The notes: generated by a model not told the origin, from the letters alone. A stretch of 64,000 nucleotides of DNA from a virus (IMGVR_UViG_3300035698_019136:35573-99572); one strand, 5' to 3'. Positions 8,239-62,709 are shown, counted from the stretch's first letter. Numbers and translations: made by a program.

Positions 8239-8285
8239 AAACTATACTTTTTACTTAATTTATTGTATAATATAGGAAGAAAGTT

Positions 8286-25230: not shown

Positions 25231-26271
25231 ATGAAAGAGATTTTCGAAGCTGGAATGGATTTTAATCAGCTGAAAAGAAAGGTTCAAGAGATTGGTGATC
25301 CCGATCAAGCTTGTAAGGTTATTATAGAAGATATCAATTCGGGCAAACTTCCTGTGAATAAATGTTCTATCAGGGATATGTTTGAAGCGTTGACTACTTC
25401 TACTTTTCCCAAGGCTGTAGGTGCTCTTATTAATAAGAGTGTTATGTCCGGTTATGATTCTGTTGATACTATTGGTGATCAGTTAGTAGAAATTGTTCCG
25501 AGTAATAAGATGACTGAGACAGTTGTTGGTTTTGATGAGGTTGATACTCCTGATATCGTATTGGAAGGTATGCCTTATGGAGAAACTGGATTCGGTGAAA
25601 AATATGTAACCATGAAGAACATCAAACGTGGTCGTATTATATCTATTACTGAGGAAACAATTAAATTTGACCAGACAGGTCAGGTTATTCAGAAAGCTAA
25701 ATTAATCGGTGAAAAGTCCGCATTGAAAAGAGAGCAACTGATTGTTGAGGGTGTTATTGATAAAAATAGTACTGTCTATAAACCTGGTGGTATTGCCACA
25801 GCATTGTACCGAACAGGTACTCCTGCGAATAGTGTTACTACAGTTCTTGGTGAGGCTGGATTGGATGCTGTTGAGGCTTTAGTTGCTGCTATGACAGATG
25901 GTAATGGTGATAAGATTATGATAAATCAGGGTAATATGATAATCCTTACTGGACAAACATTGAAGAGACAGGCATGGGAACTTATGAATTCCCCTATGAC
26001 TTCTGAATCTGCTGATGGAGCGAAGAGTTATTTCAAGGGTATGTATACTCAGAAATATTCTCCGTTTATAACCAGTGCGACTAATTATTTTATCGGTGAT
26101 TTCAAAAAGGATTTTTGGTGGACTGAAGTTTATCCACTGCAACTCATGAAAAGAAAGATGATCGATACAGATGAGGGTTTTAAAAGGGATATTATTGCTC
26201 AGTTTAAAGCAAGATTTTATGGTACGATAGGCGCTGTTGATTATAAACATAGTTTTAAGGGCGGTGCTTAA
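25231..26271 (+). CDS. major capsid protein (HK97-fold candidate)
   Basis: 346 aa, downstream of the protease/scaffold, followed by a terminator-like hairpin. The composition is typical of a major capsid protein. Confidence 0.55.
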   Translation: MKEIFEAGMDFNQLKRKVQEIGDPDQACKVIIEDINSGKLPVNKCSIRDMFEALTTSTFPKAVGALINKSVMSGYDSVDTIGDQLVEIVPSNKMTETVVGFDEVDTPDIVLEGMPYGETGFGEKYVTMKNIKRGRIISITEETIKFDQTGQVIQKAKLIGEKSALKREQLIVEGVIDKNSTVYKPGGIATALYRTGTPANSVTTVLGEAGLDAVEALVAAMTDGNGDKIMINQGNMIILTGQTLKRQAWELMNSPMTSESADGAKSYFKGMYTQKYSPFITSATNYFIGDFKKDFWWTEVYPLQLMKRKMIDTDEGFKRDIIAQFKARFYGTIGAVDYKHSFKGGA

Positions 26272-36885: not shown

Positions 36886-37821
36886 ATGAAAATAGCATTC
36901 CATTCAAATCAATTATGTGAACGTGGGACAGAAGTAGCTATGTATGATTATGCTAAATATAATGAAGAAATATTAGGTAATGAGTCTATTATTATTTCCA
37001 ATTACAATAAGGATTTAAAGGCTTTTTCTAAATTTAAAGAAAGATTTACAGAAGTTTGGGGTTATATTGATTTTAGTCTTGTTGAAAAAATGATAAAAAA
37101 AGAAAAGGTTGATATATTTTATGCTATTAAAAGAGGACGTAAGGATGGAATAGGGATTATGTGTTGCAAGACTGTAATTCATTGCGTATTTGAAATTACA
37201 GAACCTCATGGGGATGTTTATGCTGCTGTTGGGGATCAGTTATCACAAGGGAAGGTCCCCGTAGTTCCCCATATGGTAGATATTCCATTCCATAATAAGA
37301 ATATGAGAAGAAAACTAAAAATTCCAAAAGATGCTGTAGTATTTGGAAGACATGGGGGAATAGGGGATTTTAATATAGACTTTGTGAAAGATGAAATAAA
37401 AAACATACTTAGTAAACGAAAGGATGTATATTTTTTATTTTTAAATACAAGAGAATTCTTTAATCATGATAGAATAATATATCTTCCTTTTATTTTAGAC
37501 TTGAGTGAAAAAGTTAAATTTATTAATACCTGTGATGCAATGATTCATGCAAAACATAGGGGGGAGACTTTTGGATTAACAGTAGGTGAATTTTCTGTTA
37601 GAAATAAACCTGTTATTACTTGGGGTGGATCAAGAGAAATTGAACATTTAAATTTATTAGGAGAAAAAGCTATTGTTTATTCCAATGCTTCTCAATTATA
37701 TAAAATTTTTATGGATTTTGATAGAAATTGGAGCAGTAAGCAGAATTGGGATGTATACAGTAAAAAATATAATTCTAACAAAGTAATGGAAATATTTAAG
37801 AGAGTATTTATAGATGAGTGA
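36886..37821 (+). CDS. putative GT-B glycosyltransferase
   Basis: C-terminal HRGETFGLTVGEFSVRNKPVI is E-x7-E-like. Confidence 0.4.
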   Translation: MKIAFHSNQLCERGTEVAMYDYAKYNEEILGNESIIISNYNKDLKAFSKFKERFTEVWGYIDFSLVEKMIKKEKVDIFYAIKRGRKDGIGIMCCKTVIHCVFEITEPHGDVYAAVGDQLSQGKVPVVPHMVDIPFHNKNMRRKLKIPKDAVVFGRHGGIGDFNIDFVKDEIKNILSKRKDVYFLFLNTREFFNHDRIIYLPFILDLSEKVKFINTCDAMIHAKHRGETFGLTVGEFSVRNKPVITWGGSREIEHLNLLGEKAIVYSNASQLYKIFMDFDRNWSSKQNWDVYSKKYNSNKVMEIFKRVFIDE

Positions 37822-38512
37822 GAATGAAGAGGAATTAAGGGATATAAGTTTTATAATTGGAGATCTTTTAGCAAGTGATAAGAAAATTTTAATGCTAGTA
37901 GCTCATCCAGATGATGAAGTATTATTTGGAGGGGGGATACTTTTAACTTATGCTCAAGGGAAGAGTAATTGGATTGTTACTAGTTGTTGTGTACCATTTT
38001 ATCCTGAATCTTATAATTGGGATAGTAAGTTAAATAAATATAGACATTTTGAAGAGATATGTAAAAAGTTGGGTGTAAGCTGGAAATGTTTAGGTATTCC
38101 CCATGCTAAATTTTCTGGGGATGAGATATTATGGGAAAGTATTCAAAATATGCTAATACGAAATCAAATACATGGTGCATACACAGGAATTTTGTACTAT
38201 TTAAATAAGCTTTCACCGGATGTAATTATAACCCATAATATGTATGGGGAATATCGAAACCCAGTTCATTCTTTAGTAAATGCTGTAGTTAGAATGTATA
38301 AAGGGATTTTAGCTCCAGAAACAGTTATTTTGTCTTTTGCTGCTCATAAAGAAGATATTGCTTCTAATCCCCATTTTGTATTAGAACTTGATGAAAATAT
38401 TTATAATAAGAAAATAGAATTACTAAGTATGTACAAAGGGAAGGGAAACACTTTAAAGAAATATGGGATTGCTCATTGTAAAAAGGAGGCTCTTTGGTTT
38501 GAAGATTATTAA
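37814..38512 (+). CDS. PIG-L/LmbE-family N-acetylglucosaminyl deacetylase
   Basis: Hallmark VAHPDDEVLFGGG motif. Confidence 0.7.
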   Translation: MSENEEELRDISFIIGDLLASDKKILMLVAHPDDEVLFGGGILLTYAQGKSNWIVTSCCVPFYPESYNWDSKLNKYRHFEEICKKLGVSWKCLGIPHAKFSGDEILWESIQNMLIRNQIHGAYTGILYYLNKLSPDVIITHNMYGEYRNPVHSLVNAVVRMYKGILAPETVILSFAAHKEDIASNPHFVLELDENIYNKKIELLSMYKGKGNTLKKYGIAHCKKEALWFEDY

Positions 38513-38528
38513 AGCTCCTATACAGAAA

Positions 38529-39407
38529 ATGAAAGAAGATTGGGAAGAGCTAATAAATAAGGCTGCTAGTAAAAATCCATTTGTTGATTACCCCTGGCTC
38601 AGTGTCATTACTTTACATCCTGATGTTCATCAATCTTATGTATGGATAGGATATATTGACAAAGAACCTGCAATGGGATTTCCTATATCAATTTCTAAAT
38701 ATAAAGGTGATTATTCGGATATCTTAATGGAAGAAGGGTTAGATGCAGATTTAGCATATAAATTAGGTTGTATAATATTAAAAGAGGAAATAGCAACAGA
38801 TTTCCCACAAGGAAGCTTTTTTAAATATGATTCTCATTTTGTATCTATTAACAAATCTATGTTTACTTTAAATACCAATAAAGGGACTTGGGATATTAAA
38901 TTACCTAAATCTTTTGAAGAATATATGAGCAGATTTAAAGGGAAAAAAAGATATAATATGAAAAGAGAATTCAAACAGCTTGAAGATAATCATAAAGTAG
39001 AAATTATTCCTAAAGCAGATTTAAAGTATATGGATTGGTTTTTTAAATTACATGAAGCTAGATGGGGGAGAAGATGGTCTACAGGAGCAATGAGATTTTT
39101 TTTAGAAGAATATGCAAAAGCTTTGGGGGATAAATTATGGTTAGGTATGATGAAAATAGATGATGTCCCAGCTTGTATGATTTTTTGCATGGAATGTGAG
39201 AATAAACTATATGCGAGTATAAGTGGATATGATGAGAAGTATGGAAAATATAGTATTGGGATAAAGACTCATCTTGGAATAATAGAATCAGCTATTTCTC
39301 AAGGAATTACAGAATATGATTTAATGAAAGGGGATACTTCCTATAAGAAGACATTAGGAGGAATAAAAAGGGAAAGATATTATTGGAAGAGAGATGTATA
39401 TGCCTAA
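38529..39407 (+). CDS. CelD/BioF2-like GNAT-fold acetyltransferase (Acetyltransf_6-type)
   Basis: LHEARW...ISGYDEKY...YDLMKGDTSYKKTLGG. The six-frame ORF begins at 38463 and overlaps the previous gene. Confidence 0.55.
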   Translation: MKEDWEELINKAASKNPFVDYPWLSVITLHPDVHQSYVWIGYIDKEPAMGFPISISKYKGDYSDILMEEGLDADLAYKLGCIILKEEIATDFPQGSFFKYDSHFVSINKSMFTLNTNKGTWDIKLPKSFEEYMSRFKGKKRYNMKREFKQLEDNHKVEIIPKADLKYMDWFFKLHEARWGRRWSTGAMRFFLEEYAKALGDKLWLGMMKIDDVPACMIFCMECENKLYASISGYDEKYGKYSIGIKTHLGIIESAISQGITEYDLMKGDTSYKKTLGGIKRERYYWKRDVYA

Positions 39408-40056
39408 AATGGATTTAACTCAAGAAGAAGTAAAGAAAATGAAAGAAACTTATTCCCAAATAGAAGAAGTAAGGGGCAGAGAATGGGAAATTAAGAATGA
39501 GGGAATAATTAGATCAGCAATAAACCAGATTGCTTTTGCTGTTTTTCCTATGCTAGATAAAGTTGGGCCATACAAATCTGTATTAGATTTAGGATGTGGT
39601 TCAGGCACATTTTTTAAAACTTATTTTTCTATAGCATCAAAGAAGGTATTCAAACAGGGAGTAGATATGTGTGAAATGGTAATAAATAAAGATAGAAAAG
39701 AACTCCCTAATTGTGTTTTTATTTCTGATGATATTCCCCATTATATAGAATTAGAAAGTTCTGATAGTTTTGATTTAGTTACAGCTTTTGGAGTAATTCA
39801 GCATATACCAAAAGAAGAAGTTCGCTCAAAGATATATAAAGAAATGTTTAGAGTAAGTAATAAATATGTTTGTGTAGCTAATTATAGGGGATGGAAAAGC
39901 AAGGATAAGTTTTTTAAATCAAGTAAGAGTGGGGAGAGATTATTTGCATCTGAGCAAACAAAGATAGATTTTATTGAGAATTTAGAAACATATGGCAAAT
40001 TAATCAGTTATATTAGTATTTATGGAATTAATGTAGCTTTAATGGAAAAAAAATGA
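39394..40056 (+). CDS. class I SAM-dependent methyltransferase
   Basis: Motif I VLDLGCGSGTF, plus a post-I acidic residue and a motif II-like DLV. Confidence 0.65.
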   Translation: MYMPKMDLTQEEVKKMKETYSQIEEVRGREWEIKNEGIIRSAINQIAFAVFPMLDKVGPYKSVLDLGCGSGTFFKTYFSIASKKVFKQGVDMCEMVINKDRKELPNCVFISDDIPHYIELESSDSFDLVTAFGVIQHIPKEEVRSKIYKEMFRVSNKYVCVANYRGWKSKDKFFKSSKSGERLFASEQTKIDFIENLETYGKLISYISIYGINVALMEKK

Positions 40057-41342
40057 AAAAAATAGTATTAATAATTCCCCCATCTCCGTGGTTAATATCA
40101 GATACAGATTTTCCCATGCTTGGGATATTATATATTTCGGCAAATCTTAAACATAATGGGATTGAAGTAGATGTATGTGATTTAGCAGGTATCCCAGAAT
40201 CTAATTGGAGAATACCAGTTGGGGATGTATATGGTATAACAGGAACTTTCCCTAATTTCCCTTGTATGAAAAGCATAGCGGAGCATCTAAAGAAAAGAGA
40301 TAATAAAGCGTTTGTTATAGTTGGGGGGGTTCATGCTACAACCTTCCCAGAGCATATTATGAAATATTCTTGTTTTGATGCTTGTATAAGGGGCGAGGGG
40401 GAAGATTCTTTATTAGATTTTATGTGGGATTTTCCTTTTGATATGATTGGAGGACTTGTGTATAGAAAAGATGGGGAAATTATATACTCTTTGGATGATA
40501 ATAGAATTGAAGATATAAATTACCTTCCATTTCCTGATAGAAAAGCATTAGATTTTTATAAGTATATACCTGAAGATATATTCAGTTATTTGATGGGGGA
40601 ATGCAGATCAGCAACACTTATTACTTCTAGAGGATGTCCATTTGATTGTGCTTTTTGTGCTTCATGCAAAATTTGGAAAAGAGAGGTATCTTATTTTGAT
40701 ATTGATTATATTATGGAAGAAATTAAGTATTTGAAAAAAAAATACGGAATTAAATTATTCCATATTGTTGATGATTCTTTTGTTTTAAATAAAAATAGAG
40801 TATTAGAATTTTGCAGCAAGATAGCTGATTTGGGAGTTTATTGGGATTGTTTGAACAGGGTGGATTTAGTACAAGAAGATGTAATAAAAGCTATGAAAGA
40901 AGCTGGGTGTATTCAAATGACATTTGGATTTGAATCTGGGTCAAATAAAATATTAGAGAAAATGAATAAAAAAGCAAATATAGAAGATGCTTTTTCAGCA
41001 ATAGATATTGTAAATAGACAAGAAATGAAAATTAGAGGTCAGATGATTTTAGGTTTCCCAGGTGAAACAGAACAAACAGTAAATGAAACAATAGATTTTA
41101 TTCAAAAAGCTAAAGAAGTAACAAAGTTTGGGTTACATATATTTCAACCTTACCCAGGATGTGATGTTTGGAATAACCCAGAAAAGTATAATTGGAAAAT
41201 AGATAAAGAAAATATAAATTTTGATTTGTTTCACACTATAGGAAAACCTGGGGCTAAATTAACTGATAATATTAAATTAGAGGGGTGGTACAATAAAGTT
41301 AAAGAAGTTATCAAAAACAGAAGTATAGATTGGAGGAGATAA
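40053..41342 (+). CDS. B12-binding domain radical SAM enzyme
   Basis: N-terminal B12-binding-like region (KIVLIIPPSPW...VIVGGVHAT), then LITSRGCPFDCAFCAS (CxxxCxxC). Confidence 0.8.
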   Translation: MKKIVLIIPPSPWLISDTDFPMLGILYISANLKHNGIEVDVCDLAGIPESNWRIPVGDVYGITGTFPNFPCMKSIAEHLKKRDNKAFVIVGGVHATTFPEHIMKYSCFDACIRGEGEDSLLDFMWDFPFDMIGGLVYRKDGEIIYSLDDNRIEDINYLPFPDRKALDFYKYIPEDIFSYLMGECRSATLITSRGCPFDCAFCASCKIWKREVSYFDIDYIMEEIKYLKKKYGIKLFHIVDDSFVLNKNRVLEFCSKIADLGVYWDCLNRVDLVQEDVIKAMKEAGCIQMTFGFESGSNKILEKMNKKANIEDAFSAIDIVNRQEMKIRGQMILGFPGETEQTVNETIDFIQKAKEVTKFGLHIFQPYPGCDVWNNPEKYNWKIDKENINFDLFHTIGKPGAKLTDNIKLEGWYNKVKEVIKNRSIDWRR

Positions 41343-42238
41343 TGAAAAAGGCTTATTTTTATGTTAATAAAGGATACAAAACTAATACCTCAAGTTCTCA
41401 CCCTATTAGTTTTATAGGAGAAGGGTTAAAAAAACATTCTCCTTATTTTGATATATTTTATGGGGCAAAAATATTAAGCGATGAAGATATTAGGGAAATA
41501 GAACAAAAAGCTTTTGTTTTTATATCATATCAGGGAAATCAGATTCAACAATTAGAAGGGAAAGTAAAGGCTGTTAATTTTATAACTACTGTGGAAGAGT
41601 GCAGTAAGAAATATTATAAAAATACTTCTGTGCCATCTATTAATATGTCAAGGTATTCAGCTAATTGGTATAAAAAGGTATATGGCAGAGATGGGGAATT
41701 GTTGCGAATAGGGGTAGACACAGAGATCTTTCCATATAAAGAAAAGGTGGCAAAAAGAAAACCAAAATTTGGTATGGTATATAATATGGGTGTTGCCCAT
41801 AGAAAAGGAACAGGTATTATTGTAGAGCTAATAAAAAAAGGTATAAATATAGTAGCTGCTGTTGGGGATATAACAGGGAAGAGTGCATTTTCTCATGATC
41901 GTCTTTATAATTATTATCAAGGTATAGATTGTTTAATCATTAATGCACCAGATAATAAAGGAAGGGAAACTGGAAGTGCATGTGGAATAGAGGCTGGATC
42001 TTGTGGAACTACTGTTATAACTACCCCTGTGGGATTAGGAGAAGAAGCAATAGAAAATGGTAAAACAGGATTTATAATTAAAAACAATCAGGAAATAATA
42101 GATATTTGTACTAGGTATGAGGACAATGAAGAGCTTATAGTTATGGGGAAAAAATATTCTGAACATATCAGAAAAGAATGTAGTTGGAAGAACAGAATAA
42201 AAGATTGGGATAATTTTGTATTGGAGTACAAGGAATAA
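41342..42238 (+). CDS. putative GT-B glycosyltransferase (C-terminal domain)
   Basis: CGIEAGSCGTTVITTPVGLGEEAIENGKTGFI resembles a GT4 C-terminus. The six-frame ORF begins at 41330. Confidence 0.4.
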   Translation: MKKAYFYVNKGYKTNTSSSHPISFIGEGLKKHSPYFDIFYGAKILSDEDIREIEQKAFVFISYQGNQIQQLEGKVKAVNFITTVEECSKKYYKNTSVPSINMSRYSANWYKKVYGRDGELLRIGVDTEIFPYKEKVAKRKPKFGMVYNMGVAHRKGTGIIVELIKKGINIVAAVGDITGKSAFSHDRLYNYYQGIDCLIINAPDNKGRETGSACGIEAGSCGTTVITTPVGLGEEAIENGKTGFIIKNNQEIIDICTRYEDNEELIVMGKKYSEHIRKECSWKNRIKDWDNFVLEYKE

Positions 42239-43455
42239 TGAAAATATTATTAGTGAATCCTCCTTTTAGTAGATTTTTTGGATTAGAACAAGACTATGTT
42301 CCATTGTCCCTTTTAGCTGTAGGGTCAGCATTAAGTGCAGATGGATATGATGTAGTTGTTAAAAATTTAGAAGTTGACCCAAAATCAGGATATCGTGGGT
42401 ATAGTAGTAGAATCAAGGATTATAATAATTACATAGATGGGGTTTATAATGATGACCATCCTATCTGGAAAGAATTTAGGGAAGTTCTTCAGAAAGAAGC
42501 TCCAGATAAAGTGGGGATTTCAATCTTAAATGTCAAATACAAATCAGCTAAGAAATTGATATCTATCGTAAATGAATTTGGTATAAAGATTATGGTTGGA
42601 GGGTTTCATCCCACCCTGAATGAATTTATATATGGCGAAGAAATAGAAATTAATAAGGGGGAATTTGAGTGGGAATCAGGAAGAATTCAAAATTTAGATA
42701 GTTTATCATTCCCGGATTATGATATTTTAATTGATAAATATTCTCCAAATGGCTATGCCCATTTAGTTACTTCTAGGGGATGCGCTTTTAATTGTAGATT
42801 TTGTGCTTCGAGTGCGATGTGGGGAAGAAAAGTTACATTTAAATCGGTTGATAGAATATTAGAAGAAATGAGAGATATTGAGAATAGGTTCCATAGTGAT
42901 TATTTTACTTTTTGGGATGAGACATTCACAGTTAATAGAAAACGTATTTTAGAATTTTGTTCAAGATATAATCTATCAGCTGATTGGAGCTGTGAAACAA
43001 GAGCTGATTCTATAGATTCTGAATTAGTAAAAGCTATGAAAGATTCTGGGTGTGTTCAAATGGGAGTGGGAATTGAATCTGGAGTAGATAGAATATTAGA
43101 TTATATAGAAAAAGGAGAGTCGATAAAACAATTTGAACAAGCCTCTATAATTTTAAATAATAGGAAAATGAATTGGAAGGCATATTTTATTGCTGGATTC
43201 CCAGAAGAAACGGAGGAAGATATTTTGACTTCTTTAAATTTTATCAAATCATTATCACCAACTAAGATAGTGTTAAGCATATTTACTCCATATCAAGGAA
43301 CTTCTTTATTTGAAGAATGCTGTATAGATGAGGATGAAATTAGATATTCTCATCAAAGTCCTTACAATTATTTCTCAAAAAAGATAGAAAGAAATAGATT
43401 TAAAGAATTGATATCAAGTATTTCAAAGGAGATAGATATTTATAATGGAAATTGA
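42238..43455 (+). CDS. B12-binding domain radical SAM enzyme (second copy)
   Basis: MKILLVNPPF...MVGGFHPT then LVTSRGCAFNCRFCAS. Paralogous architecture to 40053. Confidence 0.8.
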   Translation: MKILLVNPPFSRFFGLEQDYVPLSLLAVGSALSADGYDVVVKNLEVDPKSGYRGYSSRIKDYNNYIDGVYNDDHPIWKEFREVLQKEAPDKVGISILNVKYKSAKKLISIVNEFGIKIMVGGFHPTLNEFIYGEEIEINKGEFEWESGRIQNLDSLSFPDYDILIDKYSPNGYAHLVTSRGCAFNCRFCASSAMWGRKVTFKSVDRILEEMRDIENRFHSDYFTFWDETFTVNRKRILEFCSRYNLSADWSCETRADSIDSELVKAMKDSGCVQMGVGIESGVDRILDYIEKGESIKQFEQASIILNNRKMNWKAYFIAGFPEETEEDILTSLNFIKSLSPTKIVLSIFTPYQGTSLFEECCIDEDEIRYSHQSPYNYFSKKIERNRFKELISSISKEIDIYNGN

Positions 43456-44446
43456 TTATTTAGTAGTTGGGGCTGGAATAACAGGATGTACGGTAGCAAG
43501 GGCAATAGCAGATACTCTAGGGGATGTTCTTATTGTAGATCAAAGGGATCACATAGGGGGGAATTGCTATGATTACTATAATAATGATGGAATATTAGTT
43601 CATAAATATGGGGTTCATTTGTTTCATACTGACAATAAAAAAGTATGGGATTTTTTAAGTAGATTTACTGATTGGAATTTTTATCAGCATAAAGCTGTGA
43701 GTTATGCTGAGGGAAAGTTATGGCCGTTTCCTCCCACTAAATCAGTTCTTCAAGAATTAGGGGGGGAAGCCTATGCGGAACTTACTTTTTATCATGGATA
43801 CAATAAAAAGATGTGGAATAAAAGATTTCAAGATATTCCAGTATCTATAAAAAATAGAGCTAAAATGAAATATAATGAGGATGAAAGATATTTTAATAAT
43901 AAATATCAAGGTCTTCCTCTTTATGGGTATACAAAGATGTTTAATAAGATGTTATCATTTAAAGGTATAAGATGGCTTTTAAATACGGATTACAGGGATG
44001 TATGGGGTTTGTTTAATAAAGCAAAGAAGGTGATATGGACAGGGGGAATAGATGATTTATGTGGTTATATATATGGGAAACTTCCCTATCGTTCATTAAT
44101 ATTTAAACATAGAACATATGATAAAGAGTTTCATCAAGAAGCATTGGCTATAAGTTACCCAAATGATAATGAATTTATACGAACAATAGAAATAAAGCAT
44201 GGTACAGGTCAACGCCACCATAAGACTACAGTGATTTATGAATATCCTACAAATATTGGAATTCCATTATATCCAGATATAACAAATAGAAAGGGTTTGG
44301 AATTGTATGATAAATATAAAAACCGAGTACTTGAGATTTGGGGGGATAAGATAATTTTGTTAGGTAGATTAGCAGAATATAAATATATTAATATGGATAC
44401 AGCAGTAGAAAATGCTTTAAATTCTATAGAAAAAGAGGTTTCATAA
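43445..44446 (+). CDS. glf: UDP-galactopyranose mutase
   Basis: DYLVVGAGITGC FAD motif, VLIVDQRDHIGGNCYD and GILVHKYGVHLFHT are all near-consensus UGM blocks. Confidence 0.85.
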   Translation: MEIDYLVVGAGITGCTVARAIADTLGDVLIVDQRDHIGGNCYDYYNNDGILVHKYGVHLFHTDNKKVWDFLSRFTDWNFYQHKAVSYAEGKLWPFPPTKSVLQELGGEAYAELTFYHGYNKKMWNKRFQDIPVSIKNRAKMKYNEDERYFNNKYQGLPLYGYTKMFNKMLSFKGIRWLLNTDYRDVWGLFNKAKKVIWTGGIDDLCGYIYGKLPYRSLIFKHRTYDKEFHQEALAISYPNDNEFIRTIEIKHGTGQRHHKTTVIYEYPTNIGIPLYPDITNRKGLELYDKYKNRVLEIWGDKIILLGRLAEYKYINMDTAVENALNSIEKEVS

Positions 44447-44448
44447 AG

Positions 44449-45138
44449 ATGGATATTAATGCCTCTATGATATTAGAGAAGTTTAATTCTGATAAATGGC
44501 AATTTAGAACTTTGAGCTTATTGGGAGCAATCAGAGATTGTTATGGGACTAATTTTGAAGGGGTCAAGGTATTAGAGGTTGGGTGTGGATTAAATTTTAT
44601 TGGTTGGGAGCTATTTAAACAGGGTGCTGATGTTGTTTTTTCTGATGCTAGAGAAGAGTACCTTAAAATAATAAAACTTAGATGTGATAAAGCAAAAACA
44701 ATTAGAGCTGATTTGGATAAAGGATTTAATTTTGGTCCAGAATTTGATCTAATTCTACATATAGGCACTTTGTATCATTTAAAGAATCCTGCTAAGGCTT
44801 TAAATGAAGTGTGTGAGTCTATGAAAAGTGGAGCACATTTATTTTTGGAAACTGAGTGGTGCAATTCGATGGATGAGACTTTGTTTGTTTGCAGAATAGA
44901 AGAAGGATGTAACAAGGCATATAATAATGTAGGATGTAGACCTTCTTATGCTATGGTGGAGTCTATTTTGAAAAAGAATAATATGAAATTTATAAGAATA
45001 GCAGATGAAAAATATAATTATTGCGATATGATTCATAATAACAATCCTGAAAAGTTAGGGCCAGATGAAAATGGTATGACTACTATAAAAATTTCAAATG
45101 ATAGGTATAGGGGGATTTGGTATGGGAAAAAACTTTAA
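44449..45138 (+). CDS. SAM-dependent methyltransferase candidate
   Basis: VLEVGCGLNFIG motif I-like, with DLILHIG downstream. Confidence 0.45.
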   Translation: MDINASMILEKFNSDKWQFRTLSLLGAIRDCYGTNFEGVKVLEVGCGLNFIGWELFKQGADVVFSDAREEYLKIIKLRCDKAKTIRADLDKGFNFGPEFDLILHIGTLYHLKNPAKALNEVCESMKSGAHLFLETEWCNSMDETLFVCRIEEGCNKAYNNVGCRPSYAMVESILKKNNMKFIRIADEKYNYCDMIHNNNPEKLGPDENGMTTIKISNDRYRGIWYGKKL

Positions 45139-45688
45139 AAGAGGACTTCTAGTAGTAAGAAATAATGGATTGCAACATCTTCAAAAAGTAATAGATAGAA
45201 TATTAGTAATAGAAAGTTTGACTATTAGTACTATTCTTCAGATTAAATGGAAAGAAGAAGATGTAGACCAGAATGTAAGAGGCTTATATGGACATATAGG
45301 GGATGAAATTATTATACAGAAGATTATAGATATGCAAGGGGTATGTATGGTAGCTATTATACTTTTAGATTCTAAACCTGACCCTTATCGACATTCATGC
45401 AGTATTTGTGGAAAGAAAACAGGGGAGGAACGATTAGATAATATGAATGTAAATAGAATCAAAGATGATATGAGAGTTCAGTATGGAAATATTATTCATT
45501 CTGCTGATACAGAAGAAAAGGCTTTGGAAGAAATAATTAAATTTGGTGGGGGACATTCAATGATGCTTGCTGAAATGAAACCTAAATTTGGAACATTTTT
45601 GAATACAACTTTTAGTTGTGACGGAATATTAGAACAATTAAATACTATGGAAAGTGGGGCGAAAGTATGGATACCACCAAACAAATAA
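45122..45688 (+). CDS. hypothetical protein
   Basis: ORF. ATG at 45122 follows GGGGGA. The six-frame ORF begins at 45098. Confidence 0.3.
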   Translation: MGKNFKRGLLVVRNNGLQHLQKVIDRILVIESLTISTILQIKWKEEDVDQNVRGLYGHIGDEIIIQKIIDMQGVCMVAIILLDSKPDPYRHSCSICGKKTGEERLDNMNVNRIKDDMRVQYGNIIHSADTEEKALEEIIKFGGGHSMMLAEMKPKFGTFLNTTFSCDGILEQLNTMESGAKVWIPPNK

Positions 45689-46326
45689 TAAACAGTTCTC
45701 GATATATTAATCAGGAAGTAATTCCTGGGAATGGGCATTCACCTTATACTGGATATACTGTATTCAGAGCTTACGATAAAGAAGAAGGGAAACAAGTTGT
45801 AATAAAAAGTGGAGGCTCTCCTAATACAGAGCATAGAAGTATAATGTCTGAGTATGAGATTCTTCGCAGGATTAATTATCCAGGAATAATTAAGGTAATA
45901 GGTTTTGGGTTTGATAGGCACACCAGTTATTTTATAATGGAGAATCATGAATTAGGAGGAAGGCGGAGTAGATGGAGAGAATTATTTAAAGAAATGTCAG
46001 AAGAAGAACTTCGTCAATTTTGCATGATTATGATAAAAACATTAGATAAACTTCGGGAAATAGATATGATCAATGAAGATGTGGAGTTAGCTAACATCGT
46101 AGCAAGTAAAGTTGATAGACCAGTACTCATAGATTTTGGAAGAGCTAAATACAAAGAGTATACTAGAATGGAATTATTGACAGCATTACATCCAGATAAT
46201 AATACAAGAATAAATGCTTGGGTTAGGGAGCTTTGTGGTATAGGGGGTAAATATGCAGAAGAAGGTGTTATACATAAAAAGGTTGATGGGATAATGCGAT
46301 TTTTATTACGGGAATGGAGAAATTAA
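45667..46326 (+). CDS. protein-kinase-fold protein (Kdo/WaaP/RIO-like small kinase candidate)
   Basis: VVIKSGG (VAIK-like Lys), NEDVELANIV (catalytic-loop-like) and LIDFGRA (DFG) in the canonical order. Confidence 0.5.
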   Translation: MDTTKQIINSSRYINQEVIPGNGHSPYTGYTVFRAYDKEEGKQVVIKSGGSPNTEHRSIMSEYEILRRINYPGIIKVIGFGFDRHTSYFIMENHELGGRRSRWRELFKEMSEEELRQFCMIMIKTLDKLREIDMINEDVELANIVASKVDRPVLIDFGRAKYKEYTRMELLTALHPDNNTRINAWVRELCGIGGKYAEEGVIHKKVDGIMRFLLREWRN

Positions 46327-46913
46327 TGGATAAAGAACATTCAGAAGAAATTTATAATATGATAGGGGTTAAACCTCCTATTGAAATGCATGGGTGTATA
46401 AAACCAGATGAAGGGCTATTATTGTATGATGTTATACTTAATTTTCAACCTGAATATATTATAGAAACAGGCAGTGGGGTCTCCACATTTTTTATTCTGA
46501 AGGCTTTGCAAATATTAGGTAAAGGGTCTTTGGTTTCTATAGATAAATTTATATTTGGTAAGCAACCATATTATCAGGATGGGGATTATAGTAATAGAGA
46601 AAAATGGATATTGCCTATTATAAAAGATAAATTTAGCGATGTAGATTGGACTTTTATAGCTAATAAAGATTCAGCAGAGTATTTAGAAGCTAATTCTGAT
46701 TTACCTGTAGATTTATTTTTCCATGATTCCTGCCATGAATTAGTTCATATAAGAAGAGAATGGTTGACAGTAAAAGATAAAACAAGAATATTTGTAGCTC
46801 ATAATTCAAATGGGAAAAAATGCTCCTCATTTTATTTTGGGGAAGAATTCACAAAAGAATTTAATTTACTAGGAGGGAAAGGAACATTAGGAGTATGGGA
46901 AAAAAAACATTAA
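46314..46913 (+). CDS. class I methyltransferase-like protein (CmcI/Methyltransf_24-like)
   Basis: IIETGSGVSTFFIL motif. Confidence 0.4.
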   Translation: MEKLMDKEHSEEIYNMIGVKPPIEMHGCIKPDEGLLLYDVILNFQPEYIIETGSGVSTFFILKALQILGKGSLVSIDKFIFGKQPYYQDGDYSNREKWILPIIKDKFSDVDWTFIANKDSAEYLEANSDLPVDLFFHDSCHELVHIRREWLTVKDKTRIFVAHNSNGKKCSSFYFGEEFTKEFNLLGGKGTLGVWEKKH

Positions 46914-47560
46914 TAATAGGAGCACCAAGAAGTGGGACATTATATATTGCTCATTTAATGCATAGAATAGGAATAGATATTAAACATGAAGATATGGGGA
47001 AGGATGGAATGGTAGATTGGGAAGCTACTTTTTGGGATAAAAAGCCTCCTTATGTACCAACATTACAAAATATGTTTGTATCAGATTTTGATATAGTATT
47101 TCATCAAACAAGATATCCTATTCCGACAATAGAATCTATGCATATTATTAATAAAAGGAATTGGGGTAAAGCGAGAGCTTGCGTAAAAGAAATGAATGAG
47201 AAAGATTCTTTGTTATTGTCTTGTATGAAATTTTATTATTACTATAATTTGAAAGCTGGGGAAATAGCTAGGTATCAATATAAAATAGAAGATATAAATA
47301 ATGTTATAATTTCTATGTTGAGATTAATGGAATATAAATTAAGTTCTAGAGTAGAAAATAAACTCCATGAATTTATTTCTAAGAGTTCAACTATTATACA
47401 TAGTTTAAGACATATAAGATTTAAAGAGAAGGACAAACCTCAGTATGGGGAAGTTACTTGGGGGTCAATGGAACAAGAAGATTTTGAATTAGCAAGGAAA
47501 ATAAAAGTAATGGCTAGAAATTATGGGTATATTATTGGGGAAAAACAAAATGAAAAATAA
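46895..47560 (+). CDS. sulfotransferase-domain protein candidate
   Basis: N-terminal LIIGAPRSGT resembles the 5'-PSB loop (PKSGTT) of sulfotransferases. Confidence 0.45.
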   Translation: MGKKTLIIGAPRSGTLYIAHLMHRIGIDIKHEDMGKDGMVDWEATFWDKKPPYVPTLQNMFVSDFDIVFHQTRYPIPTIESMHIINKRNWGKARACVKEMNEKDSLLLSCMKFYYYYNLKAGEIARYQYKIEDINNVIISMLRLMEYKLSSRVENKLHEFISKSSTIIHSLRHIRFKEKDKPQYGEVTWGSMEQEDFELARKIKVMARNYGYIIGEKQNEK

Positions 47561-48476: not shown

Positions 48477-49105
48477 AAACTATAACAGATGAATTTCATG
48501 GAATATTTTATAATTCAAAAACCACCTGGGAACAAACATATTGGAAAGGGATTAGAATATTAAAAAATCCTTTGGATTTATGGGTATTCCAAGAAATTAT
48601 TTGGAAGACAAGACCTGATTTAATTATAGAGACAGGGACAGGAATTGGAGGGAGTTCTTTTTTCTTTTTAGATATTATGAAAGGTTATGGGGGAGGGAAA
48701 GTTATTACAATAGATATTCAACCAAGATATGTATTTGACAATGCCATAAAATTTATACAGGGGTCTTCTATTTCAGAGGAAGTAATTAAGCAAGTAAAAG
48801 AATTAATATCGGATTATAGAAACTCTAAAATAATGGTAGTTTTAGATTCACGACATGAACAACCTCATGTTTTAAAAGAATTAGAATTATACAGTCCTTT
48901 TGTTTCTAAAGAATGTTATTTAGTAGTAGAAGATTCTAATATTAAAGGACATCCTATATTACCAAAAATAAAAGAAGAGGGTGGGCCATGGGAAGCAATT
49001 CAAGAATTTATGAAAAAAAATCAAGATTTTATTATAGATAAGTATTGTGAAAGATATATGTTATCTTTTAATCCTAATGGGTATTTAAAAAAAGTGGGGG
49101 AGTAG
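48473..49105 (+). CDS. CmcI-family (cephalosporin hydroxylase / rhamnosyl O-methyltransferase-like) SAM methyltransferase
   Basis: LIIETGTGIGGSSFFF and VITIDI motifs. Confidence 0.55.
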   Translation: MKTITDEFHGIFYNSKTTWEQTYWKGIRILKNPLDLWVFQEIIWKTRPDLIIETGTGIGGSSFFFLDIMKGYGGGKVITIDIQPRYVFDNAIKFIQGSSISEEVIKQVKELISDYRNSKIMVVLDSRHEQPHVLKELELYSPFVSKECYLVVEDSNIKGHPILPKIKEEGGPWEAIQEFMKKNQDFIIDKYCERYMLSFNPNGYLKKVGE

Positions 49106-49167
49106 CTTAATGGAAAGCCCCGAATTGTATCGGGAAGTTGCAGGTTCGAATCCTGCCTCCTCCACCA
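49096..49167 (+). tRNA. tRNA (anticodon region ATTGTAT: UGU/Thr if canonical) with atypical anticodon arm
   Basis: Hand-folded. The 7-bp acceptor stem GGGGGAG/CTCCTCC includes one G-T pair, followed by discriminator A and an encoded CCA. D stem GCTT/AAGC. T arm GCAGG-TTCGAAT-CCTGC. Confidence 0.65.
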
Positions 49168-51862: not shown

Positions 51863-52957
51863 ATGAAAGAGTTAAGCCCATACAAGATTTTTAATTTTTC
51901 AGATAGTATAGATCAGATTAGATTTTTTGGGGATGGTTCACCAATATCAGCTGAAATTGACCCCATTAATTCTTGCAATCATCACTGTAAATTATGTTCA
52001 GATGGGAAAGCTACCCATGGGGGGGATAAGATGTCTTTGGAGGCAGCTACATCGATTATGACCCAATTAAAGGAAATGGGGGTAAAGAGTGTACTGTTTA
52101 AGGGTGGAGGGGAACCAACTTTGCATCCAGATTTTTCTTATTTTATTGAAGAGGCTTATGGGCAAGGATTTGAAATAGGAATGCTTACAAATGGTTCTTG
52201 TCTTAGTGAAGAAATAATAAGAGACTATATAGTTCCATATTGTTCATATATAAGAATTTCGTTAGATGCGGTAAATAGCAAAGGACATAGAGAATGGCAC
52301 AGGTCTAAATTTCCCTATGATTGGAATAGAATTATATATTATATAAATAATTTGGTTTGGGAGAAAGATCTCCAAGAAAAGCCTATAAAAATAGGAATTA
52401 ATATACTGTATGATCATACAACTTGTTATAATATGTCTGAGGGAGTTGCTTTAGGGGATGCTTTGGGTGTAGATATACTTTCATTCAGAAGAGCATTTAT
52501 AGAGCAATATGGACATTCAGAAAATAAATGGACACCAGAGTTATTAGAATTAGAGGAAGAAATAAAAAAAACAACAAAAGAATTAGTAAAAGATAAACAG
52601 ATATTGGATGGAATGAAAATGCATGTTATGTTTGATGCTAGTAGAGGAACAGAGATTGGCAATATGGCAGAAAAGGCTTTACCTAAATGTTTGGCTACCC
52701 CACTATTTGCTATTATATGTGCTGATCAAAAAGTATATCCTTGTTGTGATTTAAGGTATATGGAAGAATACTGTTATGGGGATTTAAAAACTCAGACTTT
52801 TGAAGAGATATGGAAAAGTGATAGGAGAAAAGAGATATTAAATAAATTAGTGATCCCAAAGAAATGTTTTAAGTATTGCACTCATAGATTTCAATACTAT
52901 AATGAAATTTTAAATTACTTAGATGACCCAGATAAACCACATGGAGGATTGCTATGA
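51863..52957 (+). CDS. radical SAM enzyme with SPASM/twitch-like Cys-rich C-terminal domain
   Basis: INSCNHHCKLC (CxxxCxxC) and FKGGGEPTLHP. The C-terminal segment CADQKVYPCCDL...C...C is Cys-rich. Confidence 0.7.
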   Translation: MKELSPYKIFNFSDSIDQIRFFGDGSPISAEIDPINSCNHHCKLCSDGKATHGGDKMSLEAATSIMTQLKEMGVKSVLFKGGGEPTLHPDFSYFIEEAYGQGFEIGMLTNGSCLSEEIIRDYIVPYCSYIRISLDAVNSKGHREWHRSKFPYDWNRIIYYINNLVWEKDLQEKPIKIGINILYDHTTCYNMSEGVALGDALGVDILSFRRAFIEQYGHSENKWTPELLELEEEIKKTTKELVKDKQILDGMKMHVMFDASRGTEIGNMAEKALPKCLATPLFAIICADQKVYPCCDLRYMEEYCYGDLKTQTFEEIWKSDRRKEILNKLVIPKKCFKYCTHRFQYYNEILNYLDDPDKPHGGLL

Positions 52958-54269: not shown

Positions 54270-55046
54270 GTGAAAATAATTTCGATAATAGCAGGGTATG
54301 AAAATGCAGATGTACTTCCATTTGCAGCACAGATACCATTGGAGATATCAGAGAGAGTAATATTTGTGGATGGAATTAGACCTGTTATTAAGAGGGAGAA
54401 TCCTAGAATAGAATGGTTTAAACACACTGATAAATCTTATAGTCAAGATGGGACTGCGAGAATGTGCAAGAAATTAGGAATTGATTATATTCATTCAAAT
54501 CAGCCTCTTTATAATGGAGAAAAGATTCGGCATGGATTAAACTTTTATAAAGAAGATTATAAAGCTTATTTGTATTTAGAAGCAGATGAGGCATTAGAAC
54601 CTGATGATAAAGATTTAATAGTAGATTATATAGAGAAAGCTAAGGCTAGATTTAGTTCTTTTGATTTAATACAGCTTTGGAAAGATTATACAGGGTTTAA
54701 AGTTTCTTTTTCTTGTTCAAAATTAGTTTCAGATTTAGATTACAAATTCTCTGTTAGAGATGAGGGACATAATGCGGGGGAGGTCATAAGGATAGCTTTT
54801 AATAATGTTATACCCGCTAGAATGTATCATCTCCATATGTTTAGAGAGAAAGCATTGAAGAGGGTATATAATATTGAAGGGGAGGATACTTGGAGAGGAG
54901 GGGGAGATGGAGGAGGCTTAAAAATTGATAAAGCTAAATTCAAGTTGGATAGAACTAAGTTTTTAGATGATATTTATAGTACTTTGGAGATTCAAGATAA
55001 AGAAGATTTAAATGAAAAGATAAATACATATGTGGGGGAGTTATGA
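54270..55046 (+). CDS. hypothetical protein (possible GT-A-like)
   Basis: GTG start after GGAGGTAAAAG; weak DxD-like EADE. Confidence 0.3.
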   Translation: MKIISIIAGYENADVLPFAAQIPLEISERVIFVDGIRPVIKRENPRIEWFKHTDKSYSQDGTARMCKKLGIDYIHSNQPLYNGEKIRHGLNFYKEDYKAYLYLEADEALEPDDKDLIVDYIEKAKARFSSFDLIQLWKDYTGFKVSFSCSKLVSDLDYKFSVRDEGHNAGEVIRIAFNNVIPARMYHLHMFREKALKRVYNIEGEDTWRGGGDGGGLKIDKAKFKLDRTKFLDDIYSTLEIQDKEDLNEKINTYVGEL

Positions 55047-55630
55047 GAAATTTAATTTTAGTTCCTCATCAAGATGATGAGATGGTTGGTTGTTATTCTC
55101 TTATGAAATTATTGGGGGGAGAGGTGTCAGTAGCAGTGGTTTTTAAAGGTGGGGGGCAACCAAAAGATGAAGTATTAGATGAGGAAAGGTTATTTCATTT
55201 AAGATGTCAAGAAACTATGGATGCTTGTAGGGAGTTAGGAGTAAAGGAGTATGATTTTTTGTCTATTCCTAGAGGAACAAAGTTTAATGAAGTTAAAAGT
55301 TTAGTTAGAGATTATTTGAAATGGAAAAAACCTGTAAATATATTTACTACATATCCTTATGATAATCATCAAGAGCATATGATTTTGGGTAAGATTATTA
55401 AACAATTAACTAAAAAATATCAGAGAGCATATGGATTTATAGTTCAAACTGATTACCTTAAAGATTTTGCAAGTCAGCATTACCCAGATATTCGATTTAA
55501 ATTGAATACAAGTGAATTAGGAGAAAGACAACGGTTAATATGTATGTACAAAACTCAGTCTCATTTTTTACCTAATATTATAAAAAGACCTGAATATGAA
55601 TTTGAAAGGTATTGGAGGATAACTAAATGA
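55043..55630 (+). CDS. PIG-L/LmbE-like deacetylase (second copy)
   Basis: LILVPHQDDEMVG matches the xHPDDE signature. Confidence 0.55.
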   Translation: MRNLILVPHQDDEMVGCYSLMKLLGGEVSVAVVFKGGGQPKDEVLDEERLFHLRCQETMDACRELGVKEYDFLSIPRGTKFNEVKSLVRDYLKWKKPVNIFTTYPYDNHQEHMILGKIIKQLTKKYQRAYGFIVQTDYLKDFASQHYPDIRFKLNTSELGERQRLICMYKTQSHFLPNIIKRPEYEFERYWRITK

Positions 55631-62695: not shown

Positions 62696-62709
62696 GAGAT
62701 GGTGCTCTA

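Follow-up and report, generated by a model that had tools for sequence, protein, structure and literature searches.

Introduction

Class-B radical S-adenosylmethionine (SAM) enzymes have been described before, as has their action on sugars in antibiotic pathways, and the sugar-acting, cobalamin-dependent radical SAM C-methyltransferases include GenK, GenD1/GntE, Fms7, MoeK5 and Fom3 (PMC12931638). Radical SAM chemistry on sugars has so far come almost only from such pathways, and the glycosylation systems described in chloroviruses, mimiviruses and mycobacteriophages use conventional glycosyltransferases (GTs) and SAM methyltransferases. Capsid and tail-tube subunits of mycobacteriophages are glycosylated, with the glycans acting as a shield, according to the passage of PMC12619734 that cites Freeman et al. 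(2023). The locus considered here lies in a 64,000-nucleotide stretch of viral DNA (IMGVR_UViG_3300035698_019136:35573-99572), hereafter the window, and comprises three open reading frames (ORFs) designated rSAM-A (40053-41342), rSAM-B (42238-43455) and rSAM-C (51863-52957), located within a large glycosylation island. We propose, with moderate confidence, that all three are functional radical SAM glycan-tailoring enzymes of a virus-encoded cytoplasmic pathway, most likely one that decorates virion proteins.

A literature search returned nothing relevant that links radical SAM enzymes with phage glycosylation, or radical SAM enzymes, cobalamin and galactofuranose. What is new is the existence of conserved, largely virus-borne subfamilies of these enzymes in viral glycosylation islands, together with a recurrent pairing of a radical SAM enzyme with a homologue of UDP-galactopyranose mutase (UGM), both undescribed in the literature searched. 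In what follows, homologue-bearing loci compared with the window carry L-numbers and individual homologue proteins carry P-numbers.

Results

Two old radical SAM subfamilies meet in the window

The three ORFs that a preliminary description of this DNA had singled out are all present, on the plus strand. rSAM-A (429 amino acids) is a class-B radical SAM protein in which a cobalamin-type Rossmann domain (approximately residues 1-125) precedes a TIM-barrel core, and rSAM-B (405 amino acids) is class-B-like, with a Rossmann N-domain followed by a barrel carrying the CxxxCxxC motif. The N-terminal B12-binding-like region and the ensuing SRGC motif reported for both were found again: rSAM-A carries TSRGCPFDCAFCAS and rSAM-B carries TSRGCAFNCRFCAS, the cluster cysteines being C195/C199/C202 and C182/C186/C189, respectively. 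The Pfam B12-binding family (PF02310, cutoff 32.1 bits) matches residues 18-120 of rSAM-A with 51.1 bits and rSAM-B, marginally, with 34.4 bits; Radical_SAM (PF04055, cutoff 29.5 bits) matches them with 84.9 and 77.1 bits. Both proteins possess the CxxxCxxC motif, the PF04055 match and the barrel that define the radical SAM superfamily, the barrel being recovered in AlphaFold2 (AF2) models, and rSAM-A has the N-terminal PF02310 Rossmann domain ahead of the barrel that defines class B. The cluster cysteines and a GGxH(A/P)T motif of the Rossmann domain are invariant among 30 homologues of rSAM-A and 27 of rSAM-B; the invariance of the cluster cysteines speaks for conserved enzymes and against a chance occurrence of the motifs.

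The two proteins had been called paralogous, a term that holds only in a distant sense. They share 31% identity over 379 residues, and other viruses encode far closer orthologues of each, at up to 52% identity for rSAM-A and 62% for rSAM-B. Local duplication as the origin of the pair was ruled out on these figures, which point to two old subfamilies that appear to have been brought together in the island, with no recent duplication. For rSAM-A, 2511 homologues were found at E ≤ 1e-10. rSAM-B belongs to a tight orthogroup of proteins of ~415 amino acids that are 50-62% identical; this orthogroup is small, comprising about five clusters at 50% identity in a search of 1.84 billion cluster representatives, and is nested in a huge uncharacterised radiation of ~495-amino-acid proteins with 12,987 representatives at E ≤ 1e-30. 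None of these relatives reaches any NCBIfam cutoff, HpnJ being the top model for several.

Two kinds of unusual architecture were observed among the relatives of rSAM-B. P0233 (693 amino acids) is an orthologue split by an intein (Pfam PF14890), so that the profile matches in two stretches. P0368, P0388, P0408, P0431, P0484 and P0485, of 1433-2331 amino acids, contain one to four stretches each that match the rSAM-B profile and are apparently multi-module fusions of class-B radical SAM domains.

Structure models and cobalamin binding

AF2 models of rSAM-A and rSAM-B were of high confidence, with mean predicted local distance difference test (pLDDT) values of 91.6 and 89.4, and show the class-B architecture that had been ascribed to the proteins, rSAM-B being class-B-like. 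Foldseek searches of the PDB gave full-length matches for both to the cobalamin-bound enzymes MgmA/QCMT, TsrM, OxsB, CysS and TokK. AprD4, a sugar 1,2-diol dehydratase, has a Rossmann-like domain that binds no cobalamin and is used by a recent review as a caution (PMC12931638); the fold alone therefore cannot settle B12 dependence.

In a profile of the whole rSAM-A family, the N-domain aligns to QCMT, OxsB, TokK, CysS, TsrM and the isolated B12 domain 4Q37, whereas AprD4 (6FD2) aligns only from position 145, that is, over the barrel. The profile of the N-domain by itself also matches cobalamin domains (CysS, 1e-5; TokK, 6e-5; 4Q37, 2e-3). In TokK the lower-axial residue is Trp76; radical methylases have a hydrophobic residue at this position, and TsrM and OxsB a polar one (PMC12931638). 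Trp76 aligns with an invariant proline, Pro67, in the rSAM-A family, and hhalign places the near-invariant Val99 of rSAM-B at the same position. A polar, OxsB-like lower-axial residue in rSAM-B (Asn98 or Lys100) had been considered and was dropped in view of the latter alignment. By hhalign the N-domains of rSAM-B and rSAM-A are homologous (probability 96.5%), and the AF2 model of rSAM-B contains two extra helices inserted in the Rossmann fold at residues 55-87 (~30 residues). Cobalamin binding is, from these comparisons, likely for rSAM-A; for rSAM-B the corresponding prediction has weaker support.

Genes for glycan biosynthesis surround the radical SAM genes

The three genes had been assigned to a viral glycosylation island, and their surroundings bear this out. 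Pfam scans delimit an island of ~29 kb (29206-58506, plus strand) with ~35 co-directional, tightly packed genes for soluble enzymes, in a window that also encodes terminase, portal and capsid-like proteins. Its Pfam inventory comprises ~9 GTs of the GT1/GT4 and GT2 types, at least seven SAM methyltransferases, including FkbM-type and CmcI/rhamnosyl-O-methyltransferase-type enzymes, one UGM homologue, two PIG-L de-N-acetylases, a FemAB-like acyltransferase, a kinase-fold protein and the three radical SAM enzymes. The island sits between head genes (capsid-like, 25231-26271) and tail-fibre-like and Neck1 genes (62078-63213), which places GT genes within a structural gene module, the arrangement that marks mycobacteriophage-type virion glycosylation; mycobacteriophage GT genes adjoin capsid and tail genes. 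No transmembrane segment was predicted in any island enzyme. Assembly of a lipid-linked or host-surface polysaccharide was considered as an alternative function of the island and is disfavoured, since the island is without Wzx, Wzy, phosphoglycosyltransferase, oligosaccharyltransferase-like or other membrane proteins.

As first described, rSAM-A and rSAM-B flank a GT gene. This GT-B type enzyme (41330-42238, plus strand), whose C-terminal half is GT1/GT4-like, matches Glycos_transf_1 (4.8e-8; 33.2 bits against a cutoff of 26.4) and Glyco_trans_1_4 (2e-6), and its gene is translationally coupled to both radical SAM genes. Upstream, the stop codon of a class I SAM methyltransferase gene (39394-40056, plus strand; Methyltransf_31/25/11) overlaps the start of rSAM-A. 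Downstream, the UGM family gene (43445-44446, plus strand) overlaps the end of rSAM-B by 11 nucleotides and is followed by a second class I methyltransferase gene (44449-45138, plus strand; Methyltransf_23/11/9-like). Since the ORFs in the order methyltransferase, rSAM-A, GT, rSAM-B, UGM, methyltransferase (39394-45138) overlap or abut, they constitute one translationally coupled block. The UGM homologue matches GLF (2.5e-51, 174.7 bits) and NAD_binding_8 (1e-18, 67.8 bits) and scores 277.5 bits with TIGR00031, just under the cutoff of 303.75; its sequence places it in the mutase family, and the substrate would be UDP-galactose or another nucleoside diphosphate-pyranose. The second methyltransferase co-occurs with rSAM-A orthologues elsewhere, 34% identical homologues adjoining them in L001 and L003.

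Relatives of the enzymes are common in environmental viruses

Such chemistry had been called rare in described viral glycosylation systems; in metagenomic viruses the gene combination is common: at least 495 IMG/VR viral contigs encode relatives detected with the rSAM-A profile. The rSAM-B profile identified 11 loci in the same database. Among 185,579 species-representative genomes, rSAM-B orthologues were found only on two contigs of metagenome-assembled genomes (MAGs; 54% and 43% identity), one of them clearly virus-like, and one further relative had 32% identity. A tblastn search of 50,697 GenBank phage records found no cultured phage with an orthologue of rSAM-A or rSAM-B and returned only weak matches, to gp36 of Streptomyces phage SF3 (the best, with 27% identity) and to two faecal contigs. 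By these sequence searches the rSAM-B orthogroup appears essentially confined to uncultivated viruses.

The neighbourhoods of these relatives provide the strongest new evidence for a role in glycan biosynthesis. The sugar-modifying function suggested in the preliminary description is strengthened by orthologues and relatives that lie among genes for GTs, methyltransferases, UGM homologues, epimerases/dehydratases, aminotransferases and pyruvyl transferases in dozens of viral loci. Orthologues in other viral contigs stand beside GLF, GT2, GT10, GT11 and GT25 genes, DegT aminotransferases, epimerases of the short-chain dehydrogenase/reductase (SDR) type, UDP-GlcNAc 2-epimerase, UDP-glucose dehydrogenase and sulfotransferases. 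A Pfam tally of 130 neighbours at 14 orthologue loci is led by GT2 (11), class I methyltransferases (8), further radical SAM enzymes (5) and GLF (4), and also contains GT11, FkbM, Gly_transf_sug, Caps_synth, RGP and UDP-glucose dehydrogenase. A second tally, of 149 genes that lie no more than two positions from the radical SAM gene at 40 more distant viral loci, is led by GT2 (14), followed by methyltransferases, polysaccharide pyruvyl transferases (6), epimerase/dehydratases (5), radical SAM enzymes (5), GT1, carbamoyltransferase and NTP-transferase. A UGM homologue directly adjoins a class-B radical SAM gene in seven independent loci (the window, L003, L004, L014, L015, L020 and L023), and these adjacencies span three radical SAM subfamilies.

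Individual loci illustrate the pattern. L003, a viral contig with a portal gene, encodes a GT2, a class-B radical SAM enzyme of a third type (7149-8417), GLF, a methyltransferase and an rSAM-A orthologue and, further along, a sulfotransferase, UDP-glucose dehydrogenase, a GT and a kinase-like protein. In L004 the order is GT10, rSAM-B orthologue, GLF, GT2 and GT10, and then another radical SAM gene with a GT2. The rSAM-B orthologue of L005 is followed by a DegT aminotransferase and an SDR, that of L006 is preceded by FnlA-like and UDP-GlcNAc-2-epimerase-like genes, and four of five further rSAM-B loci have a GT25 or GT2 upstream and a small class I methyltransferase downstream. L004 shares its contig with L013 and L066 (IMGVR_UViG_3300022217_000003, 175,779 bp), on which no fewer than four class-B radical SAM genes were seen within ~15 kb of glycan genes. 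They comprise an rSAM-B orthologue, a gene for a 504-amino-acid radical SAM protein and two adjacent genes at L066 9953-12831.

A protein of ~230-243 amino acids without Pfam match is encoded directly downstream of, and overlapping, rSAM-A orthologues in L001 (11289-12020), L003 (11314-12009) and L020 (11268-11948), the three copies being 41-45% identical to one another. It was considered as a conserved partner of rSAM-A and rejected, as it has no counterpart in the window, where the GT gene takes its place.

rSAM-C resembles twitch-type enzymes

rSAM-C (364 amino acids, plus strand) combines a radical SAM core, with the motif CNHHCKLC and cluster cysteines C38/C42/C45 (Radical_SAM 57.4 bits against 29.5), with a Cys-rich C-terminal domain that matches SPASM (PF13186) with 34.2 bits (cutoff 21.5). 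Its earlier designation as a SPASM enzyme is thus right as regards the CxxxCxxC motif, the Cys-rich C-terminus and the SPASM match, and has to be modified as regards the auxiliary clusters. Among 23 homologues the core cysteines are kept, and only four to five of the seven C-terminal cysteines are conserved (C276, C294, C295, C335 and C339), a pattern that fits a single auxiliary cluster and would place the protein nearer to a twitch domain than to a full SPASM domain, in which seven cysteines bind two auxiliary clusters. A profile of the family matches SkfB (the top match), DesII, BlsE, CteB, viperins, anSME, MoaA and BtrN in the PDB. rSAM-C reaches the cutoff of no named NCBIfam model, the best score being 79 bits against 380.

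The closest homologue (47% identity, L099) is encoded between GT2 genes, with a methyltransferase and another SPASM protein, and a distant one occurs as a fusion with a cytidylyltransferase, within a bacterial cluster of the nonulosonic-acid/flagellin-glycosylation type; action of rSAM-C on a sugar or sugar nucleotide is plausible from this context. The fusion protein (P0358, L101 1750-3480) joins a CTP_transf_3 cytidylyltransferase to a radical SAM/SPASM enzyme, and its cluster further encodes FlgM, two DegT aminotransferases, a PseB-like SDR, a methyltransferase, a second radical SAM/SPASM protein and NeuB, an association suggesting that nonulosonic acids are tailored by radical chemistry. 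A 33% identical homologue of rSAM-C occurs in a nine-gene run (L100 3036-13147; 62-kb contig 3300042261 of the Joint Genome Institute, JGI) in which eight genes encode radical SAM proteins, one of them B12-binding and several with SPASM domains; the flanks of this run look cellular (enolase, homoserine transsuccinylase).

Other genes of the island

The two PIG-L family de-N-acetylases are encoded at 37814-38512 (plus strand; PIG-L 6e-11) and 55043-55630 (1.9e-15), and the first gene is followed by one for a FemAB-like/GNAT acyl- or aminoacyl-transferase (38463-39407, plus strand; Acetyltransf_6 3.2e-23, FemAB_like 1e-8). The protein-kinase-fold protein (45667-46326, plus strand; Pkinase 3e-12), which has a weakly matching counterpart in the related island L003 (17518-18036), could be a sugar kinase of the WaaP/KdkA type or a protein kinase. 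Relaxed Pfam scans of eight unannotated island ORFs yielded nothing usable. One unannotated protein of 221 amino acids (46895-47560, plus strand) has no Pfam match even at E = 5 and starts with IIGAPRSGT, which resembles the loop that binds 3′-phosphoadenosine 5′-phosphosulfate in sulfotransferases; sulfotransferase genes are present in the related islands L003 and L004. The sole sizeable intergenic gap of the island contains a tRNA gene (49096-49167, plus strand; Rfam 53.8 bits against a gathering threshold of 29) with canonical acceptor, D and T arms and an encoded 3′ CCA, in which the anticodon loop has six nucleotides (AUUGUA), not seven, and to which ARAGORN assigned no anticodon.

The virus

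The window is part of the genome of a novel, uncultivated tailed virus. Its head module encodes a large terminase (8891-10495), a portal (11065-12585) and a head-morphogenesis protein (13089-14174), followed by the HK97-type capsid-like protein (25231-26271); downstream of the island lie genes for a tail-fibre-like protein (62078-62695) and a Neck1/tail-completion protein (62710-63213). All credible genes are on the plus strand, the GC content is ~32% (0.29-0.33 in the island versus 0.33-0.38 in the head module), and the GC skew is high throughout the 64 kb, at +0.25 to +0.53 per 2-kb window with no switch. Neither capsid nor DNA comparison revealed relatives of the virus among GenBank phages or in IMG/VR: a megablast search of the 50,697 GenBank phage records with the island gave no match, IMG/VR contains no relative of the capsid protein, and a collection of 15 billion proteins contains none of the proteins of the window. 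The orthologue-bearing MAG contigs are labelled Methanosarcinales, Woesearchaeota and Omnitrophota, which gives only hints on host or lineage.

Three further genes outside the island were observed. Among the head-module genes, 19605-20273 (plus strand) encodes a fourth, small radical SAM protein (222 amino acids) with the motif CNMLCPHC, a Radical_SAM match of 6e-9 and a weakly SPASM-like C-terminus. Directly after the last GT gene of the island, 58588-60591 (plus strand) encodes a right-handed beta-helix protein of 667 amino acids (Beta_helix 2e-20, NosD-like) with a hydrophobic N-terminal segment, which could be a tailspike, a depolymerase or a glycan-binding fibre. An HNH/NUMOD3 homing-endonuclease-like gene (61429-62112, plus strand) is inserted in the neck/tail genes just downstream of the island.

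Discussion

A proposed role in glycan tailoring

The window holds intact, conserved radical SAM enzymes, two of class-B or class-B-like architecture and coupled to GT, mutase and methyltransferase genes, in a glycan neighbourhood that recurs in other viruses, is free of membrane components and occupies a position within the structural module. A glycan-tailoring role for the enzymes is, we believe, probable; dehydration and rearrangement are possible reactions besides C-methylation, and C-methylation as the specific reaction of rSAM-A, suggested by analogy, is a serious possibility that falls somewhat short of an even chance. In the pathway that we envisage, host UDP-sugars would enter and the viral UGM, as its homology suggests, would convert UDP-galactopyranose to UDP-galactofuranose (UDP-Galf), while the ~9 soluble GTs would build a glycan on a presumably soluble acceptor. 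A soluble acceptor and a virion target are proposed because no membrane component is encoded and because the island lies between capsid and neck/tail genes. PIG-L enzymes would remove N-acetyl groups, the FemAB-like protein would re-acylate, and the seven or more class I methyltransferases would O- or N-methylate, as expected from their families. In rSAM-A, a [4Fe-4S] cluster would cleave SAM to give a 5′-deoxyadenosyl radical that takes a hydrogen atom from an unactivated sugar carbon, and methylcobalamin held in the N-terminal Rossmann domain would then donate the methyl group, as in C-methylation of the GenK/Fom3/TokK type. The substrate of rSAM-B may be a nucleotide sugar or furanosyl residue that the neighbouring mutase produces or is supplied with, and the enzyme would be a second cobalamin-dependent C-methylase or else a cobalamin-independent radical dehydratase or isomerase resembling AprD4. 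Like BtrN or DesII, rSAM-C might use one auxiliary cluster in oxidising, epimerising or dehydrating a sugar or sugar nucleotide.

More speculatively, tailed viruses of the environment, whose hosts may be anaerobic archaea or uncultured bacteria, could harbour an extensive and entirely uncharacterised set of radical SAM glycan-tailoring enzymes, including an rSAM-B orthogroup, almost confined to viral contigs, that works with a pyranose/furanose mutase. Such a pair could make a sugar new to glycans, such as a furanose on the virion that is C-methyl-branched, deoxygenated or ring-rearranged (HpnJ/OxsB-like), an extension that we put forward tentatively.

Evidence against this role and alternative explanations

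Several results count against tailoring of a virion glycan by cobalamin-dependent enzymes, and the functional evidence is all guilt by association. Neither rSAM-A nor rSAM-B reaches the cutoff of any named class-B NCBIfam model (HpnJ, BchE, ApyD, PhpK/Sden_1168, QCMT, BzaD, HpnR, ladderane radical SAM, TsrM). For the best named models (ApyD, HpnJ, P-methyltransferases, BchE and QCMT), every score amounts to 15-30% of the curated cutoff: ApyD gives 164 bits for rSAM-A and 130 for rSAM-B against 750, and HpnJ 154 and 119 against 578. The reaction is therefore not transferable by homology; by the same measure, profile classification assigned neither protein to a non-glycan family, an outcome that the preliminary description had regarded as fatal to its proposal. 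The N-domain profile of rSAM-B has no significant match in the PDB, hence to no solved cobalamin domain, and several of its orthologues are without a Pfam B12-binding match. Among the loci, no GT was found near the rSAM-A orthologues of L001, the rSAM-B orthologue of L005 also adjoins genes for ThyX, a thymidylate/deoxynucleoside kinase and an RNase T-like exonuclease, and SF3 gp36, the only relative in a cultured phage, adjoins thymidylate kinase and NUDIX genes.

One or both of the class-B-like enzymes, especially rSAM-B, might instead be AprD4-type, cobalamin-independent radical dehydratases or isomerases that form nucleotide-linked deoxy- or keto-sugars, the Rossmann domain being a structural remnant. 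AprD4 is the best PDB sequence match for both proteins (E ~1e-23), the first Foldseek match for rSAM-B (template modelling (TM) score 0.72), ahead of MgmA and CysS, and the match of highest TM score for rSAM-A (0.77), results that likewise tell against cobalamin dependence. It is similarly compact, with ~450 amino acids and no C-terminal domain of the TokK or CysS kind, and the N-domain of rSAM-B, as noted, has an insertion and matches no solved cobalamin domain. SDR reductases/epimerases able to reduce a keto product adjoin rSAM-B orthologues in L004-L006, and a warning has been given that AprD4-like proteins co-cluster with true B12 enzymes (PMC12931638). The similarity to AprD4 is nevertheless restricted to the barrel: the N-domains of rSAM-A and rSAM-B do not align to it by hidden Markov model (HMM), that of rSAM-A aligns to the cobalamin domains of TokK, CysS, QCMT and 4Q37 with a common GG(P)H motif, and the AprD4 model NF033070 gives 94.9 and 93.1 bits, again over the barrel only, against a cutoff of 500, which leaves both proteins outside the AprD4 family. 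Pfam scans also found no SDR partner in the island of the window. On balance we regard an AprD4-type function as unlikely.

The gene contexts of L005 and SF3 are a hint that some lineages modify DNA or nucleotides, and on this account a further reading merits attention: the island with its radical SAM enzymes might hypermodify viral DNA, glycans on hydroxymethylated bases being tailored by radical chemistry to evade host nucleases. Virus-encoded GTs hypermodify DNA with diverse glycans, according to the statement in PMC12619734 that cites Pyle et al. (2024), and the island enzymes are all soluble. Against this, no base hydroxymethylase or DNA-modification gene was seen in the 64-kb window, and the island is part of the structural and not the replication module. 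Its ~9 GTs, two de-N-acetylases and acyltransferase imply a glycan far larger than any that we know of on DNA, and we consider a DNA target improbable.

Less probable still is modification of a peptide or protein, for instance by C-methylation of capsid or tail proteins resembling that of ribosomally synthesised and post-translationally modified peptides (RiPPs) or methyl-coenzyme M reductase (MCR), with the glycan genes nearby by chance. Of the NCBIfam models, that of the RiPP enzyme ApyD scores best; among solved cobalamin enzymes the protein glutamine C-methyltransferase QCMT/MgmA is the nearest, and rSAM-C has the peptide maturase SkfB as its top PDB match. But all these scores are far under the family cutoffs, no precursor-peptide-like gene or RiPP recognition element was seen, and the conserved adjacency to UGM, DegT, epimerase and GT genes, which extends over three radical SAM subfamilies and dozens of loci, can hardly be put down to coincidence. 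That the genes are bchE-like anaerobic cyclases, acting as auxiliary metabolic genes (AMGs) of tetrapyrrole metabolism, is scarcely credible: JGI labels several homologues as anaerobic magnesium-protoporphyrin IX monomethyl ester cyclase and viral 'bchE' has been discussed as an AMG (PMC13452462), but the BchE model gives 137 bits for rSAM-A and 111 for rSAM-B against a cutoff of 481, no tetrapyrrole gene lies nearby, and the consistently glycan-related neighbourhood argues strongly against it. The automatic annotation of these homologues as BchE or YgiQ is a mislabelling.

Our results suggest that viruses use radical chemistry to tailor glycans. If so, viruses would be a large untapped source of radical carbohydrate chemistry, none of the relatives on the IMG/VR contigs having been characterised, and the recurrent pairing with UGM would provide a concrete substrate hypothesis, namely UDP-Galf or a related furanose. 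The labels 'bchE' and 'YgiQ', commonly given to such genes as AMGs in viromics, would need correcting, and virion production would depend on the host supply of iron-sulfur clusters, SAM and probably cobalamin.

Comparison with known systems

The sugar-acting C-methyltransferases GenK, GenD1, Fms7, MoeK5 and Fom3 are likened here to the viral enzymes by architecture and not by sequence alignment: they share an N-terminal cobalamin-type Rossmann domain, less certain in rSAM-B, ahead of a CxxxCxxC barrel, a pathway with GTs and other sugar-tailoring enzymes, and a hydrophobic residue at the position of TokK Trp76. They differ in belonging to actinomycete antibiotic pathways, and the viral proteins are compact (405-429 amino acids) and make up separate subfamilies. 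Among solved cobalamin-bound structures the closest is that of MgmA/QCMT (PDB 9CCB), the MCR glutamine C-methyltransferase, which Foldseek matches to rSAM-A with 7e-26 (TM score 0.70/0.72) and to rSAM-B with 9e-19. A compact two-domain size of 417-450 amino acids and the region of the GG motif are shared; in contrast, identity is ~20%, TIGR04014 gives 114 and 82 bits for rSAM-A and rSAM-B against a cutoff of 360, and the enzyme acts on a protein glutamine of methanogens, outside any glycan context.

AprD4 (PDB 6FD2), the radical SAM 1,2-diol dehydratase of apramycin biosynthesis, resembles the viral enzymes in size and domain order, and its substrate, paromamine, is a sugar. Its partner enzyme is the reductase AprD3, for which the Pfam scans found no SDR-type candidate in the island, and its cobalamin-free N-domain (PMC12931638) sets it apart, as described above. 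HpnJ, of hopanoid cyclitol-ether formation, is the second-best NCBIfam model for both proteins. The substrate of HpnJ is a glucosamine and its pathway proceeds in the order GT, deacetylase, class-B radical SAM enzyme, which resembles the order GT, PIG-L, acyltransferase, methyltransferase, rSAM-A in the window; the chemistry of HpnJ itself has, as far as is known, been derived only from genetics. Apart from scores far below the HpnJ cutoff, the window differs in having no hopanoid genes, and the deacetylase family may differ.

rSAM-C shares with BtrN, DesII and BlsE, twitch/SPASM-related enzymes that act on sugars or sugar nucleotides, the CxxxCxxC core, a C-terminal Cys domain and glycan-gene neighbours, and its profile matches DesII (2.5e-16), BlsE (4e-16) and BtrN (4e-12); it departs from them in having SkfB as its top match and in its four to five conserved auxiliary cysteines. 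The pathway as a whole can be compared with the glycosylation systems of mycobacteriophages, chloroviruses and mimiviruses, with which it shares virus-encoded soluble GTs and methyltransferases. To our knowledge, and in the literature searched, those described systems contain no radical SAM enzymes, whereas the island reported here is far larger, with ~35 genes in ~29 kb, and adds three radical SAM enzymes and a UGM homologue to the conventional repertoire.

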